This document shows positions 27,648-55,114 of a DNA stretch of 64,000 nucleotides, in pieces (within the stretch, counting starts at the first letter, position 1; each line of letters begins with the position of its first letter). The notes below the pieces were generated by a model, which saw only the letters and a list, made by a program, of their open reading frames with translations, was not told the DNA's origin and made no database searches. Position numbers and translations under genes: made by a program. The stretch lies in assembly GCF_024223415.1 (NCBI RefSeq), contig NZ_CP100500.1; one strand, 5' to 3'. This DNA comes from Escherichia coli (lineage in GTDB: Bacteria; Pseudomonadota; Gammaproteobacteria; Enterobacterales; Enterobacteriaceae).

Positions 27648-29639
27648 ATGTCCTCACGTAAAGAGCTTGCCAATGCTATTCGTGCGCTGAGCATGGACGC
27701 AGTACAGAAAGCCAAATCCGGTCACCCGGGTGCCCCTATGGGTATGGCTGACATTGCCGAAGTCCTGTGGCGTGATTTCCTGAAACACAACCCGCAGAAT
27801 CCGTCCTGGGCTGACCGTGACCGCTTCGTGCTGTCTAACGGTCACGGCTCCATGCTGATGTATAGCCTGCTGCACCTCACCGGCTACGATCTGCCGATGT
27901 CCGAGCTGCAAAACTTCCGTCAACTGCACTCCAAAACTCCGGGCCACCCGGAAGTGGGTTACACCGCTGGTGTGGAAACCACCACCGGTCCGCTGGGGCA
28001 GGGTATTGCCAACGCAGTAGGTATGGCGATTGCAGAAAAAACGCTGGCGGCGCAGTTTAACCGTCCGGGCCACGACATTGTCGACCACTACACCTACGCC
28101 TTCATGGGCGACGGCTGCATGATGGAAGGCATCTCCCACGAAGTTTGCTCTCTGGCGGGTACGCTGAAGCTGGGTAAACTGATTGCGTTCTACGATGACA
28201 ACGGTATCTCTATTGATGGTCACGTTGAAGGCTGGTTCACCGACGACACCGCAATGCGTTTCGAAGCTTACGGCTGGCACGTTATTCGCGACATCGACGG
28301 TCATGACGCAGCATCCATCAAACGCGCAGTAGAAGAAGCGCGCGCAGTGACTGACAAACCGTCCCTGCTGATGTGCAAAACCATCATCGGTTTCGGTTCC
28401 CCGAACAAAGCCGGTACTCACGACTCCCACGGTGCGCCGCTGGGTGATGCAGAAATCGCTCTGACCCGCGAACAGCTGGGCTGGAAATACGCACCGTTCG
28501 AAATCCCGTCTGAAATCTATGCGCAGTGGGATGCGAAAGAAGCAGGTCAGGCGAAAGAATCCGCATGGAACGAGAAGTTTGCTGCTTACGCCAAAGCTTA
28601 TCCGCAGGAAGCTGCTGAATTCACCCGTCGTATGAAAGGCGAAATGCCGTCTGACTTCGACGCGAAAGCGAAAGAGTTCATTGCTAAACTGCAGGCTAAT
28701 CCGGCGAAAATCGCCAGCCGTAAAGCGTCGCAGAATGCTATCGAAGCGTTCGGTCCGCTGTTGCCGGAATTCCTCGGCGGCTCCGCTGACCTGGCACCGT
28801 CTAACCTGACCCTGTGGTCTGGTTCTAAAGCAATCAACGAAGATGCTGCGGGTAACTACATCCACTACGGTGTTCGCGAGTTCGGTATGACCGCGATTGC
28901 TAACGGTATCTCCCTGCACGGTGGCTTCCTGCCGTACACCTCCACCTTCCTGATGTTCGTAGAATACGCACGTAATGCCGTACGTATGGCTGCGCTGATG
29001 AAACAGCGTCAGGTGATGGTTTACACCCACGACTCCATCGGTCTGGGCGAAGATGGCCCGACTCACCAGCCGGTAGAGCAGGTTGCTTCTCTGCGCGTGA
29101 CCCCGAACATGTCTACATGGCGTCCGTGTGACCAGGTTGAATCCGCGGTCGCGTGGAAATACGGTGTTGAGCGTCAGGACGGTCCGACCGCGCTTATCCT
29201 CTCCCGTCAGAACCTGGCGCAGCAGGAACGTACTGAAGAGCAACTGGCAAACATCGCGCGCGGTGGTTATGTGCTGAAAGACTGTGCTGGTCAGCCGGAA
29301 CTGATCTTCATCGCTACCGGTTCAGAAGTTGAACTGGCGGTTGCTGCCTACGAAAAACTGACTGCTGAAGGCGTGAAAGCGCGCGTGGTTTCCATGCCGT
29401 CTACCGACGCATTCGACAAGCAGGACGCGGCTTACCGTGAGTCTGTCCTGCCGAAAGCTGTTACTGCACGCGTTGCGGTGGAAGCGGGTATTGCTGACTA
29501 CTGGTACAAGTATGTTGGCCTGAATGGCGCTATCATCGGTATGACCACCTTCGGTGAATCTGCTCCGGCAGAGCTGCTGTTTGAAGAGTTCGGCTTCACT
29601 GTTGATAACGTTGTTGCGAAAGCAAAAGCGCTGCTGTAA
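27648..29639 (+). CDS. tktA: transketolase 1
   Basis: [52 protein letters not shown]... Confidence 0.96.
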
Positions 29640-29660
29640 TCAGTAAGACGTTTTGTGAGA

Positions 29661-29685
29661 AGGGCCGCGAAAGCGGCCCTTTAGA
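29661..29685 (+). terminator. tktA terminator hairpin
   Basis: gggccgcgaaagcggccc followed by ttt; the same hairpin recurs at 29838-29855. Confidence 0.5.
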
Positions 29686-29689
29686 TTAT

Positions 29690-29835
<146 letters not shown>

Positions 29836-29858
29836 GGGCCGCGAAAGCGGCCCTTTTT

Positions 29859-30767
29859 TTACTTAGTAGAGATAAACGGAACTGTGCTGCCGGGGATCAT
29901 GGTATCGGGCAGTTTACCGTCCCAACGTTCGGCAGTGGTGAGGGCTACAAGTCCGGGATTATCCCGCAGAGCTTCACCGCGCAGGCGGATTGCTTCTGCT
30001 TCAGCCGCACTTTTTAAACGAATAGTTTCAGCCTCTGCCGCGCCTCTTACGCGAATAGTTTCCGCTTCTGCTTTGGCTGCCGCCAGTTTACTGTCTGCTT
30101 CTGCCTGGGCCTGAGTTACCGCTATTTGCGCCTGGATTTTCTCTGTTTCCAGATTTTGCTTACGCGTGGCAATGGCGACTTCTGCTTTCATTCGGTCTTC
30201 AATCGACTTTTCATAAGCGTCAGAAAAATCAATATTTTCAATCTGGACCCCGTCAATTACCACTGGCCCAACAACGGCTTTGCGCATGGCATTTTGCAGA
30301 TCCTGAACCAGTTTTGTACGATCCTGTACAGCGCTGATGGCGGTATATTGGCCGAAAACGTTCTCCAGTTGAGTTGGCAACTGACGGACAATCAGACGAT
30401 CTTTTAATGCTTCAATGGTGTTGTAGGTGGTATAAACCGCGCCTGCTTCTGAAGGTTTAATGTGGAAGCTGACTGATACTGTCATTTGTGCCGGTTGCTG
30501 GTCGCGGCTGTAGGCCTGTAATCCCTGATAGACCACAGCCTGATTACGCGTGGAAATTTTCTCCACGCTTTCCATAAACGGGATCTTAAAACCCAGACCC
30601 GGCTCGGCAACTTTTACGATTTTTCCGTAGCGCAGCAAAATGCCGCGTTCACCTTCATTAACGGTGTAATACGAGAGAAATGGCAGCACAACCACGGCAA
30701 GCACGCCGATGGCGATAGCAAGAGATTTTTGTGGGCGAAATGAGGTTAATGAAACAGGTGCTTTCAT
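29859..30767 (-). CDS. SPFH/band-7 (stomatin/prohibitin-like) membrane protein with a C-terminal Ala/Glu-rich repeat
   Basis: N-terminal TM segment SLAIAIGVLAVVVLPFLSYY, SPFH-like core, then AAAKAEAETIRVRGAAEAETIRLKSAAEAEAIRLRGEA. Confidence 0.65.
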   Translation of the reverse strand: MKAPVSLTSFRPQKSLAIAIGVLAVVVLPFLSYYTVNEGERGILLRYGKIVKVAEPGLGFKIPFMESVEKISTRNQAVVYQGLQAYSRDQQPAQMTVSVSFHIKPSEAGAVYTTYNTIEALKDRLIVRQLPTQLENVFGQYTAISAVQDRTKLVQDLQNAMRKAVVGPVVIDGVQIENIDFSDAYEKSIEDRMKAEVAIATRKQNLETEKIQAQIAVTQAQAEADSKLAAAKAEAETIRVRGAAEAETIRLKSAAEAEAIRLRGEALRDNPGLVALTTAERWDGKLPDTMIPGSTVPFISTK

Positions 30768-31144
30768 GACAATCTTCCTTGAGTAAAGTGTGGGAATATG
30801 TCACATGAGATGAGGAGAAAACAGCCGACAGGTGAGAATTCAGAATCTATAAAGGGGTATAGCGAAAAAACATTGCATTAGGAAAGTATGTTTTCGAACA
30901 TTCAATAAATAAATAGAGATATTCATCACAAATACAATAACAAACAAAATGTTGATTTTGTGATAAGCATAACAAATACAAAGTTGACTTTAAAAATATC
31001 AATTTCATATTGTTGTTATTTAAGGTTTTATTATTTTGGTTTATGGGGTTTTTCTTCTCGCGTACCCAATTGCTTTCATTAAACCGCACGAGTATTTTAT
31101 TTTTACCGCCGGACGGTACCCTAAAAATAAAATAAGGATAATTT

Positions 31145-31588
31145 ATGCGGCTTAGTGATTATTTTCCAGAATCATCAATCTCAGTTATACATTCAGCAAA
31201 AGATTGGCAGGAAGCTATCGATTTCTCGATGGTATCATTGCTGGATAAAAACTATATCAGCGAGAATTACATTCAGGCAATTAAAGATTCCACCATTAAC
31301 AATGGCCCTTATTATATTCTCGCACCAGGCGTGGCAATGCCTCATGCGCGACCGGAATGTGGGGCGCTTAAAACCGGGATGTCTTTGACATTACTTGAAC
31401 AAGGTGTTTATTTTCCGGGGAATGACGAACCAATTAAATTACTCATCGGACTCTCTGCTACCGATGCCGATTCGCACATTGGCGCTATTCAGGCGTTAAG
31501 TGAATTACTGTGCGAAGAAGAAATACTCGAACAACTCTTAACAGCATCATCAGAAAAACAATTAGCGGACATTATCAGCCGCGGATAA
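31145..31588 (+). CDS. cmtB: mannitol-family PTS enzyme IIA (cryptic cmt operon)
   Basis: 147-aa ORF MRLSDYFPESSISVIHSAKDWQEAIDFSMVSLLDKNYISENYIQ... Confidence 0.88.
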   Translation: MRLSDYFPESSISVIHSAKDWQEAIDFSMVSLLDKNYISENYIQAIKDSTINNGPYYILAPGVAMPHARPECGALKTGMSLTLLEQGVYFPGNDEPIKLLIGLSATDADSHIGAIQALSELLCEEEILEQLLTASSEKQLADIISRG

Positions 31589-31615
31589 TTACTCTCTCCT
31601 CTACAGGATAATATT

Positions 31616-33004
31616 ATGGAAAACAAGTCTGCTCGTGCAAAGGTCCAGGCTTTTGGGGGCTTTTTGACTGCAATGGTCATCCCCAATATTGGTGCTTTTA
31701 TTGCCTGGGGTTTTATTACTGCGTTATTTATTCCCACCGGTTGGCTGCCTAACGAACATTTCGCCAAAATTGTCGGCCCGATGATTACCTATTTATTGCC
31801 CGTGATGATTGGTTCTACCGGTGGTCATCTGGTCGGCGGTAAACGCGGCGCGGTCATGGGCGGAATAGGTACTATTGGTGTGATCGTCGGCGCAGAGATC
31901 CCGATGTTCCTTGGCTCAATGATTATGGGGCCGCTCGGTGGTCTGGTCATAAAATATGTTGATAAGGCACTGGAAAAACGCATACCTGCCGGTTTTGAGA
32001 TGGTTATCAATAACTTCTCATTAGGTATCGCGGGGATGCTCCTTTGCCTGCTGGGTTTTGAAGTGATCGGCCCGGCGGTGTTAATTGCCAATACTTTCGT
32101 CAAAGAGTGTATTGAGGCGCTGGTACATGCGGGTTATCTGCCTCTGCTGTCAGTCATCAATGAACCGGCGAAAGTGCTTTTCCTTAATAATGCGATCGAT
32201 CAGGGCGTCTATTATCCGCTGGGAATGCAACAGGCTTCGGTTAACGGTAAATCCATCTTCTTTATGGTGGCCTCTAACCCAGGTCCGGGCCTGGGGCTGC
32301 TGCTGGCGTTTACCTTGTTTGGTAAAGGGATGAGTAAACGTTCTGCGCCCGGGGCGATGATTATTCACTTCCTCGGTGGGATCCACGAACTGTATTTCCC
32401 ATATGTGCTGATGAAGCCGCTGACTATTATTGCCATGATTGCGGGCGGTATGTCTGGCACCTGGATGTTTAACTTACTGGACGGTGGTCTGGTGGCTGGC
32501 CCAAGTCCGGGGTCTATCTTTGCTTACCTGGCGCTGACGCCGAAAGGTTCGTTCCTGGCGACAATTGCCGGTGTTACGGTAGGTACCCTGGTGTCCTTTG
32601 CTATCACTTCGCTGATACTGAAGATGGAAAAAACGGTGGAAACGGAGAGCGAAGATGAGTTTGCTCAGTCAGCCAATGCGGTTAAGGCGATGAAACAAGA
32701 GGGTGCATTCTCGTTAAGCAGGGTTAAGCGTATCGCCTTTGTTTGCGATGCGGGGATGGGCTCCAGTGCGATGGGCGCGACCACCTTCCGTAAACGCCTG
32801 GAAAAAGCGGGGCTGGCAATTGAAGTAAAACATTACGCCATAGAAAACGTGCCTGCGGATGCGGATATCGTCGTTACTCATGCCAGTCTGGAAGGGCGCG
32901 TGAAACGTGTGACGGATAAACCACTGATATTGATTAATAACTATATTGGCGATCCAAAACTCGACACTTTATTTAATCAATTAACCGCCGAACATAAACA
33001 CTGA
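31616..33004 (+). CDS. cmtA: mannitol-family PTS enzyme IICB (cryptic)
   Basis: 462-aa ORF MENKSARAKVQAFGGFLTAMVIPNIGAFIAWGFITALFIPTGW... Confidence 0.9.
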   Translation: MENKSARAKVQAFGGFLTAMVIPNIGAFIAWGFITALFIPTGWLPNEHFAKIVGPMITYLLPVMIGSTGGHLVGGKRGAVMGGIGTIGVIVGAEIPMFLGSMIMGPLGGLVIKYVDKALEKRIPAGFEMVINNFSLGIAGMLLCLLGFEVIGPAVLIANTFVKECIEALVHAGYLPLLSVINEPAKVLFLNNAIDQGVYYPLGMQQASVNGKSIFFMVASNPGPGLGLLLAFTLFGKGMSKRSAPGAMIIHFLGGIHELYFPYVLMKPLTIIAMIAGGMSGTWMFNLLDGGLVAGPSPGSIFAYLALTPKGSFLATIAGVTVGTLVSFAITSLILKMEKTVETESEDEFAQSANAVKAMKQEGAFSLSRVKRIAFVCDAGMGSSAMGATTFRKRLEKAGLAIEVKHYAIENVPADADIVVTHASLEGRVKRVTDKPLILINNYIGDPKLDTLFNQLTAEHKH

Positions 33005-35279: not shown

Positions 35280-35789
35280 ATGGCGACGCTGACAGAAGAT
35301 GATGTGCTTGAGCAACTGGATGCACAGGACAATTTATTTTCATTTATGAAAACTGCGCATTCTATTTTGCTCCAGGGGATACGCCAGTTTCTGCCGTCGC
35401 TGTTTGTCGATAACGATGAAGAGATCGTCGAATATGCAGTGAAGCCGTTACTCGCCCAAAGCGGCCCGCTTGACGATATTGATGTCGCACTGCGTTTGAT
35501 TTATGCGCTGGGGAAAATGGATAAATGGCTGTACGCCGATATCACGCATTTTTCCCTGTTCTGGCATTACCTGAACGAACAGGATGAAGCGCCCGGATTT
35601 GCCGATGACATGACCTGGGATTTTATCAGCAACGTCAATAGCATAACCTGCAATGCGACGCTCTATGACGCGTTGAAAGCGATGAAGTTCGCCGATTTCG
35701 CCGTCTGGTCAGAGGCGCGTTTTAGCGGAATGGTCAAAACGGCGCTGACGCTGGCAGTAACGACCACCTTAAAGGAATTAACGCCGTGA
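35280..35789 (+). CDS. yggD: MtlR-like transcriptional regulator YggD
   Basis: 169-aa ORF MATLTEDDVLEQLDAQDNLFSFMKTAHSILLQGIRQF... Confidence 0.85.
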   Translation: MATLTEDDVLEQLDAQDNLFSFMKTAHSILLQGIRQFLPSLFVDNDEEIVEYAVKPLLAQSGPLDDIDVALRLIYALGKMDKWLYADITHFSLFWHYLNEQDEAPGFADDMTWDFISNVNSITCNATLYDALKAMKFADFAVWSEARFSGMVKTALTLAVTTTLKELTP

Positions 35790-54911: not shown

Positions 54912-55114
54912 TATTTGCTCCGTAAAACGCAATCAAAATGAGGGTATTTGCGCCTACGGTGAGCTTTTTACGTGGGTTTGTCGCCAGCAAAAAAAATGCA
55001 TTCAGACGTCGTTTTTTGCCGCCTGAGATTTGTCTATTTTGTGATGTGATTCAAGGAATACAAAAAGAAGTGAGGGCAACGCCTGATATGTGCTATCAGG
55101 CATTATTTGGTGGA

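Follow-up and report, generated by a model that had tools for sequence, protein, structure and literature searches.

A pair of CRP sites 44 bp apart upstream of the Escherichia coli cmt operon as a predicted docking platform for an MtlR-family protein

The cmt operon of Escherichia coli, a mannitol-family phosphotransferase system (PTS) operon considered cryptic, is preceded by a 377-bp spacer (30768-31144) between a gene for an SPFH/Band-7 protein and cmtB in the window analyzed here, i.e., the whole stretch of 64,000 nt from contig NZ_CP100500.1 (assembly GCF_024223415.1). This spacer carries two sites for the cAMP receptor protein (CRP) whose centers are exactly 44 bp apart. What is new is that such a pair, at 44-45 bp, is conserved across Enterobacterales beside a gene for an MtlR paralog, in an operon whose EIIB loop is identical to that of the mannitol system. 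We are inclined to read the cmt control region as a CRP-spacing-dependent operator on which YggD (FumE) or MtlR would dock, a reading drawn from sequence comparison; the CRP part of this model we hold with high confidence.

Two CRP Sites Precede cmtB at a Distance of 44 bp

Candidate sites were scored with a symmetrised CRP weight matrix derived from 106 sites obtained by chromatin immunoprecipitation sequencing (ChIP-seq) in enterotoxigenic E. coli (ETEC) H10407 (Haycocks et al., 2015, Table 1), with the cmtB site omitted; this matrix reproduces the five mtl sites with their spacings of 43, 44, 73, and 44 bp. Site 1, AGAGATATTCATCACA at 30915-30930 (center 30922.5), scored 11.82 bits, the fourth-highest value in the window and above that of 37% of the ChIP-derived sites. 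Site 2, TGTGATAAGCATAACA at 30959-30974 (center 30966.5), scored 14.65 bits, more than 71% of them, and is one mismatch away from TGTGA-N6-TCACA. It is the motif that a preliminary description of the spacer had flagged as CRP-like, and it proved to be a high-scoring CRP site, ranking third among all positions in the 64 kb. The inverted motifs that the same description listed nearby are present as well, but they are not a separate feature: TCATCACA at 30923-30930, the word tcatcaca contained in site 1, and TGTGATAA at 30959-30966, which are joined as an inverted repeat (I5), are the inner facing half-sites of two adjacent palindromic CRP sites. The distance between the two centers also equals the period of a direct repeat, D2. 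This exact distance, like the MtlR-family gene in the operon, had escaped the preliminary description. When the spacer was shuffled 5000 times with dinucleotides preserved, 13 shuffles reached the score of site 2 and none yielded both sites. The pair is the sole one in the window with both members at 10 bits or more at a distance of 20-120 bp, and the chance expectation of a pair 43-46 bp apart is 0.005-0.03.

Published CRP Binding at cmtB

For the K-12-type allele, control of cmtB by CRP is on record in the literature, with one site described. Shimada et al. (2011; PMC3105977) obtained the K-12 CRP site CGTGTTGTAGATCACA in the tktA/cmtBA-yggPFDC spacer by genomic SELEX (systematic evolution of ligands by exponential enrichment) and found that expression of a cmtB-lacZ fusion, whose fragment covers the whole spacer, was lower in a crp mutant. 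In ETEC H10407, a CRP ChIP-seq peak was located at cmtB and assigned to the same site, CGTGTTGTAGATCACA, on the opposite strand (Haycocks et al., 2015; PMC4287617). The Fold-Above-Threshold value of this peak, 16, is the fifth highest of all, and the top two belong to the yibI/mtlA peaks. Coordinates in Table 1 of that study lie about 195 bp below those of RefSeq NC_017633.1, an offset that was calibrated at galP and checked at mtlA/yibI and cmtB; after its correction, the center of the cmtB peak falls about 7 bp from the center of site 1. The published site aligns to site 1 of the window, and the motif flagged in the preliminary description is the neighboring site 2. The suggestion of a CRP-dependent promoter region for cmt, made in that description, is thus upheld by SELEX, lacZ fusion, and ChIP-seq results, all of them obtained on the K-12-type allele. 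The published target and ours agree in the locus and in the position of site 1, and CRP acted as an activator in the lacZ fusion. They differ in that the alleles studied by Shimada and Haycocks are without the SPFH gene and 52% identical to the window in the variable part of the spacer, and in that one site was reported, whereas the stronger site of the window allele is site 2; the 44-bp spacing and its conservation are not described in those studies. The very strong ChIP-seq signal is an indirect hint, and the only one, that both sites are occupied by CRP simultaneously.

Conservation of the Site Pair in a Diverging Spacer

The tkt-cmtB spacer falls into a hypervariable part (30878-31065), whose length is kept and whose sequence has diverged except for a few conserved islands, and a nearly invariant leader (31066-31144). 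Identity to the window over the hypervariable part is 51.6% for K-12, about 71% for the E2348-type allele, and 90-98% for the other SPFH-positive alleles, while cmtB is 94-99.8% identical across alleles; K-12 itself matches the window at 98.7% in the leader and 99.8% in cmtB. The K-12-type spacer is as distant from the window allele as those of Salmonella or Citrobacter, with chance identity at about 30%, and there are almost no indels despite this divergence. A horizontal donor of the K-12-type spacer was considered and rejected, since no sampled genus exceeds about 54% identity and none can be named as the source.

Within this diverging sequence, site 1 scores 10.6-13.9 bits in 10 of 10 E. 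coli alleles and site 2 scores 13-15 bits in 7 of 10, with 7.6 bits in strain P276M and 4.4 bits in two E2348/69-type alleles; the 44-bp spacing is found in all 10. Among 30 loci from other species and genera, both sites score at least 9 bits in 17, one site does so in 11, and neither in 2. The centers are 44 bp apart in every Enterobacteriaceae locus in which both sites were detected, and elsewhere the distance measures 44 bp (Providencia), 45 bp (Serratia), or both of these values (Yersinia intermedia). The columns of the variable stretch that are invariant across genera fall on the CRP core, which in site 1 means G, T, C, and A. Conservation among strains, which the preliminary description had proposed as a check, was thus confirmed, with site 1 present throughout the E. 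coli alleles and the pair kept across genera; the exceptions are the E2348-type allele and two loci, L014 and L019.

The site pair also keeps a fixed distance to a candidate core promoter on the + strand, P1, which consists of a -35-like TTGCTT (31070-31075), a 17-bp spacer, and a -10-like TATTTT (31093-31098), with a start near A31105. The arrangement TTG(C/A)TT-N17-TATTTT occurs in essentially all genera, TATTTT being the only -10-like hexamer whose position is conserved in 22 of 22 sequences, and in Providencia and Serratia, too, a -35-like TTGC(T/A)T lies upstream of a TATTTT -10. We predict from this pattern that TTGCTT-17-TATTTT is a conserved weak sigma-70 promoter. No start-site entry for the cmt locus is contained in the Cappable-seq and SMRT-Cappable-seq supplements, which are possibly incomplete. 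To measure distances, 33 sequences (the window, K-12, E2348/69, and the 30 genome loci) were anchored on the conserved GTATTTTATTTTT block. The best-scoring sites lie at an identical distance from the -10 block in 29 of the 33 and are shifted by ±1 bp in two; the remaining two, both from Superficieibacter, misfit, one of them with a 12-bp deletion in the cross-genus alignment. The distance from the -10 block to the ATG ranges from 46 to 67 nt.

The E2348/69-type allele (L008 and L009) is carried by about 471 of 5426 genomes; its site 2, TGTAGTTTACTTAACA, is the one that scores 4.4 bits, and its site 1 is kept. This allele is also changed in the leader, where E2348/69 itself has a 1-nt deletion. 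In P276M (L005, 590-1497), in which site 2 reads TTAGA..TAACA, the SPFH/prohibitin gene is annotated as frameshifted. The O157:H7 strain TR01 (L010, 1320-1648) is a mosaic with a W/E-type tkt 3' flank, a truncated terminator hairpin, a K-12-type left spacer, and a window-type right spacer; the breakpoint lies at about 31013, with window-type sequence from a conserved TGTTAT island onward, which implies that the spacer has recombined internally. In Citrobacter, Salmonella arizonae, and several other genera (L017-L043), the left half of site 2, at position -186 from cmtB, reads TGCAA(T/C) instead of TGTGA, a half-site that resembles the CytR operator word.

A Predicted Operator for an MtlR-Family Protein

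The significance of a 44-bp spacing follows from the mechanism that Lee et al. (2026, NAR, PMC13421365) described for the mtl operon. MtlR is without a DNA-binding domain and docks on CRP; it binds only to two CRP dimers that are 43-46 bp apart, with an optimum of 44-45 bp, and this spacing is both necessary and sufficient, such that malK acquires MtlR binding once its sites are moved from 34 to 44 bp apart and the inter-site sequence is irrelevant (Lee et al., 2026). The CRP sites of mtl are spaced at 43/44/73/44 bp, and those far upstream are needed for activation. Residues R167 and L178 of MtlR contact CRP, and their mutation abolishes docking and repression. Release occurs when the active-site loop of dephosphorylated MtlA IIB binds MtlR, for which MtlA residues 383-393 form the docking surface (Lee et al., 2026).

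The cmt operon encodes counterparts of both protein partners. The fifth gene of the operon, yggD/fumE (35280-35789, + strand), codes for a full-length MtlR-family protein of 169 amino acids that is about 30% identical to MtlR and matches the full Pfam domain PF05068 (MtlR) at 174 bits. Its residues R147 and L158 align with R167 and L178 of MtlR and are invariant in 19 orthologs, being 2 of the 25 invariant columns in an alignment of 20 sequences. CmtA (cmtA, 31616-33004, + strand; PTS EIICB, Pfam PF02378 and PF02302) shares 53% identity with MtlA; the active-site loop of its IIB domain, CDAGMGSSAMGA, corresponds to MtlA 384-395 with 12 of 12 residues identical around the equivalent of Cys384. 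Structures have been solved for YggD (3C8G) and for MtlR (6KCR and 3BRJ). The six-gene operon (EIIA, EIICB, Zn-dehydrogenase, class II FBPase, MtlR-like, and YggC-like) is also kept in Yersinia intermedia, Providencia burhodogranariea, and a Serratia sp. (L047-L049), in contexts unrelated to tkt, the Serratia copy adjoining a transposase, which suggests that a cmt-type operon moves together with its control region.

In the model that we propose, two cAMP-CRP dimers bound 44 bp apart, at a fixed distance upstream of P1, would form the platform for a dimer of an MtlR-family protein that has no DNA-binding domain of its own; the operon's own YggD/FumE would be the most likely docking protein, and MtlR itself a possible one. 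The docked dimer would block CRP-dependent activation and so keep cmt 'cryptic', and the substrate, by analogy with mtl, would lead to dephosphorylation of CmtA IIB and thereby to sequestration of the regulator at the membrane. If the spacing and not the sequence is what is recognized, it would be understandable that the DNA between the sites and next to them has diverged freely with almost no indels, and the model would also account for the MtlR paralog that travels with the operon and for the apparent crypticity of the operon. The more specific form of it, in which cmt is the second natural CRP-spacing-dependent operator and YggD its DNA-binding-less repressor ('CmtR'), released by dephosphorylated CmtA IIB, we consider about evenly balanced between true and false.

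Several points weigh against this model. Docking of YggD or MtlR on cmt DNA is a prediction by homology, and YggD, which goes by the name 'fumarase E' in some sources and 'MltR family transcriptional regulator' in others, may be an enzyme rather than a regulator. The alignment of MtlR with YggD is weak C-terminally, where the BLASTP match ends at MtlR residue 147, so that the correspondence of the CRP-contact residues is tentative. Lee et al. (2026) state that the 43-46 bp requirement is satisfied only by mtl (cmt, YggD, and FumE are nowhere mentioned in their text), and they report that some Vibrio MtlRs fail to bind despite the right spacing on account of the dimer angle, an angle given as roughly 138 degrees for the S. 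enterica MtlR and described as consistent with E. coli. On the DNA side, the core of site 1 in the window reads AGAGA..TCACA, with 8 of 10 core matches, and the sites are not universal, the E2348-type allele having a degenerate site 2 and L014 and L019 having two weak sites. With P1 as the promoter, the predicted centers at about -138.5 and -182.5 are also not classical class I positions.

The record so far holds CRP binding upstream of cmtB and lacks a second site at the distance that recruits MtlR, the conservation of this arrangement wherever the operon is found, and the link to the MtlR paralog and the identical EIIB docking loop that the operon encodes. The locus is a predicted further case of a mechanism whose description dates from 2026 and which was presented as exclusive to mtl. 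If the model is true, the repression mechanism in which the distance between two CRP dimers, and not a DNA sequence, is read would operate at a second natural locus, a regulatory role that can be put to the test would fall to YggD/FumE, the long-standing crypticity of cmt would be explained in concrete terms, and the locus would clearly exemplify regulatory DNA under constraint for length but not for sequence. Natural alleles of the E2348/69 type, which have lost site 2 and occur in about 9% of E. coli genomes, provide a natural test of the two-site model and, on this reading, would count as regulatory variants.

Alternative Explanations

The most serious alternative, which we nevertheless regard as rather doubtful, is that of an ordinary class III CRP promoter in which the two dimers act only as activators or as architectural elements (through bending, phase-dependent remote activation, or the alpha-subunit C-terminal domain, alpha-CTD) without any MtlR-family protein, the 44-bp spacing being kept for the geometry of CRP-CRP or CRP-RNA polymerase contacts. 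CRP binding and CRP dependence are the only facts shown experimentally, and the fixed distance from the sites to the -10 block fits stereospecific activation. Activation of mtl requires its far-upstream CRP sites whether or not MtlR is involved (Lee et al., 2026), and in the window allele the pair has the appearance of a tandem duplication (D1 and D2). This explanation, however, leaves it unaccounted for that the spacing is the MtlR-docking one of 44-45 bp in every lineage, Providencia, Serratia, and Yersinia included, and that an MtlR paralog with invariant CRP-contact residues travels with the operon; moreover, no other CRP unit at 43-46 bp was reported by Lee et al. (2026), which argues that this spacing is not a general requirement of CRP.

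Silencing by H-NS, in line with the 'silenced' promoter suggested in the preliminary description, was also weighed, in which filaments on the spacer, at about 25-30% GC, would keep cmt cryptic and CRP would act mainly as an anti-silencer. This is a possibility on grounds of base composition only, and one compatible with the other explanations, but we think it improbable to a slightly greater degree than the class III promoter. The very low GC content noted in the preliminary description was confirmed: over 30800-31100 the GC content in 200-bp segments drops to 0.24-0.30 against 0.51 for the window, and its minimum of 0.24 is the lowest of the 64 kb, where just three stretches lie below 0.33. 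Part of the spacer adjoins an inserted gene, and anti-silencing by upstream CRP clusters was raised as a possibility for mtl by Lee et al. (2026). Against H-NS as the explanation, the AT-rich DNA at 30878-31144 is ancestral in all genera and not foreign, and H-NS alone would not enforce a base-pair-exact spacing. Matches to H-NS motifs are at chance level window-wide (67 vs. 64.8 expected), with one 2-mismatch match to the high-affinity motif (TCGATAAATT-like) within the spacer. The literature on cmtB/cmtA with H-NS gave no binding data, and the supplements of the ETEC paper are without an H-NS table.

It is quite unlikely that the nearly invariant leader acts as RNA, whether through an AU hairpin by the Shine-Dalgarno sequence (as a translational or attenuator element) or through a 21-codon open reading frame (ORF) that starts with TTG and ends with the TAA at 31133-31135. 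The leader region does contain a perfect 13-nt inverted repeat, TATTTTATTTTTA-N16-TAAAAATAAAATA at 31093-31134 on the + strand, whose left arm overlaps the -10 block and whose right arm is the A-rich leader ending at the Shine-Dalgarno AAGGA (31134-31138). Folding z-scores are about -3 for RNA and DNA alike, the outer stem pairs in 94.7% of cells, an A-to-G change in four sequences still pairs as G-U, and many sequences from Escherichia, Citrobacter, and Salmonella have the 21-codon frame open. On the other hand, the arms are nearly invariant with zero covariation, the shuffle controls are not exceeded (49/500 and 99/500), RNAalifold returned no consensus structure, the inner helix is paired in only 66% of cells, and Lelliottia, Huaxiibacter, and Enterobacter have a shortened 3' arm. 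The ORF is thrown out of frame by 1-nt and 5-nt indels in E2348-type E. coli, E. albertii, and Raoultella, and if P1 is the promoter the 5' arm is untranscribed, in which case the 13-nt palindrome is the -10 region plus the A-rich leader. A hairpin or attenuator formed by the palindrome was rejected for want of covariation and a consensus fold, and a leader peptide was rejected because its frame is unconserved; other ORFs of the spacer (40 and 80 amino acids) meet stop codons in other alleles. An Rfam scan of 29600-31700 gave no credible match in the spacer.

That the motifs are functionless chance matches, as AT-richness lifts the background of TGTGA/TCACA-like words and as words with one mismatch allowed number 5 per 64 kb against 1.68 expected (a count reached by 3 of 100 shuffles), is effectively refuted by the published SELEX and ChIP binding data, by the local shuffles, and by invariant columns that fall on CRP core positions amid change-saturated surroundings, and its probability is negligible.

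Comparison With Known Systems

The closest likeness is to the mtlADR operator (Lee et al., 2026), in which adjacent CRP sites are likewise 44 bp apart and far upstream, with unrelated sequence between them. Both systems are mannitol-family PTS operons that also encode a dehydrogenase and an MtlR-family protein, share an identical EIIB active-site loop, and are among the strongest CRP ChIP-seq peaks. They differ in the number of CRP sites, five at mtl and two at cmt, where no proximal site at about -58.5 exists if P1 is the promoter, and in the family member, which at cmt is YggD/FumE, annotated as a fumarase, its docking being predicted from sequence. K-12 site 1 (CGTGTTGTAGATCACA) and the most distal mtl CRP site, CRP1 (CATGCTGTAGATCACA, L045), share the 11-mer TGTAGATCACA, which could be a coincidence or a trace of common descent and is not used as evidence here.

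CytR, at deoP2, cdd, udp, and other promoters, is a repressor held between or beside tandem CRP dimers by protein contact and works as an anti-activator; it has a DNA-binding domain and an operator of its own, and the CRP spacing is about 52-53 bp. The complex proposed for cmt would resemble it as an anti-activator held by CRP dimers, and would differ from it in the three latter features. CytR-CRP repression complexes are named in the discussion of Lee et al. (2026), who also cite papBA, where remote activation by CRP at -215 is dependent on helical phase and operates well beyond -100. The likeness to papBA is a distant CRP that may counter silencing by nucleoid proteins; the difference is that papBA combines one CRP site with Lrp and phase variation, and the relevance of the comparison hinges on the start position of cmt, which is predicted only.

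The spacer alleles also call to mind 'switched', i.e., horizontally replaced, intergenic regions, a concept that Oren et al. in 2014 and Thorpe et al. in 2018 reportedly put forward for E. coli. The likeness consists in near-identical flanks (cmtB at 99.8%) around promoter alleles of inter-genus divergence (52%) and in mosaics such as that of O157. In contrast to switched regions, length, CRP site pair, and core promoter are all retained by the cmt alleles, with the exception of the E2348-type allele, in which site 2 is lost; apart from this allele, the regulatory logic looks preserved and not rewired.

Unassigned Islands in the Spacer

Three islands are invariant over more than 10 genera in otherwise saturated sequence, namely CAA at 30903-30905, TTG at 30984-30986, and TTGTT at 31013-31017; none of them fits a conserved -35/-10 pair, and they may be sites for another protein. 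The TTG, part of TTGACT at 30984-30989 (+ strand) in the window, is invariant in 22 sequences and always 9 bp after site 2. No -10 is conserved among these 22 sequences at 15-19 bp after it, and TTGACT-16-CATATT and TTGACT-18-TATTGT were rejected as promoters, as a scan gave a count no higher than in shuffles and no conserved -10. The island TTGTTATTTAAG at 31013-31024 (+ strand), in which T31014, G31015, and T31017 are invariant across genera, was rejected as a conserved -10 element because many genera are without the -11 A. Placing site 2 in a class II or class I promoter with a start near 31008 or 31028 was rejected as well, the -10 hexamers needed being unconserved and the -11 A often absent.

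Genomic Setting and the SPFH Islet

The locus is 100% identical to that of an O78 E. coli strain. The tkt gene (+ strand) ends at 29639 and is followed by a cluster of repetitive extragenic palindromic (REP) sequences forming a bacterial interspersed mosaic element (BIME). The SPFH/Band-7 (prohibitin family) gene occupies 29859-30767 on the - strand and codes for 302 amino acids (Pfam PF01145, 111.6 bits; annotated as 'prohibitin family protein'); it is the sole gene of the islet and is divergent from cmtB. The operon then runs on the + strand in the order cmtB, cmtA, yggP, yggF (glpX-like), yggD, and yggC, with cmtB (31145-31588; Pfam PF00359) encoding the EIIA of the mannitol family. The SPFH gene is present in 1814-1827 of 5426 complete E. 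coli genomes, about one third; it is absent from K-12, BL21, ETEC H10407, and O157 and was found only within Escherichia, in part of E. coli, in E. albertii, in E. whittamii, and in two further lineages. In Citrobacter, Salmonella arizonae/diarizonae, Raoultella, Lelliottia, Silvania, and other genera, about 317-350 bp separate the end of tkt from cmtB downstream, and no SPFH gene intervenes. Because tkt adjoins cmtB outside Escherichia, the SPFH gene is taken to have inserted between CRP site 1 and the terminator of tkt.

The right-hand junction of the islet was located from an alignment of 10 E. coli alleles, in which K-12 and O157 are gapped across 30768-30877 and homology resumes at about 30878. 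The islet-side part, 30768-30877, which comprises the 5' region of the SPFH gene and its presumed promoter, aligns among SPFH-positive genomes only, whereas 30878-31144 is present in SPFH-less K-12 and in other genera and is the ancestral tkt-cmtB spacer (its hypervariable part described above on the + strand). The preliminary description had taken the spacer as the right-hand boundary of the islet; the junction does lie inside it, at about 30878 and not at cmtB, a difference of about 270 bp.

The tkt terminator hairpin AAGGGCCGCGAAAGCGGCCCTT is present twice, at 29660-29681 and 29834-29855, on both sides of the REP/BIME cluster; some SPFH-positive strains have no such cluster and one hairpin common to tkt and the SPFH gene. 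The hairpin and REP repeats explain the roughly 25 matches per genome that were obtained when the locus was compared with genomes. In the Rfam scan, the only match above the gathering score was ES036/CssrF (29746-29788, 53.5 bits), in the REP cluster downstream of tkt, and naRNA4 was matched in part.

Elsewhere in the window, the highest-ranking CRP site is the published TGTGAAGCAAATCACA at 18739-18754 upstream of galP (16.45 bits), in a region that is AT-rich too, and TGTGATATGGATAACA at 1305-1320 scores 16.29 bits. A CRP-like pair 95 bp apart, at 55040 and 55135, matches SELEX sites listed near argP/scpA.

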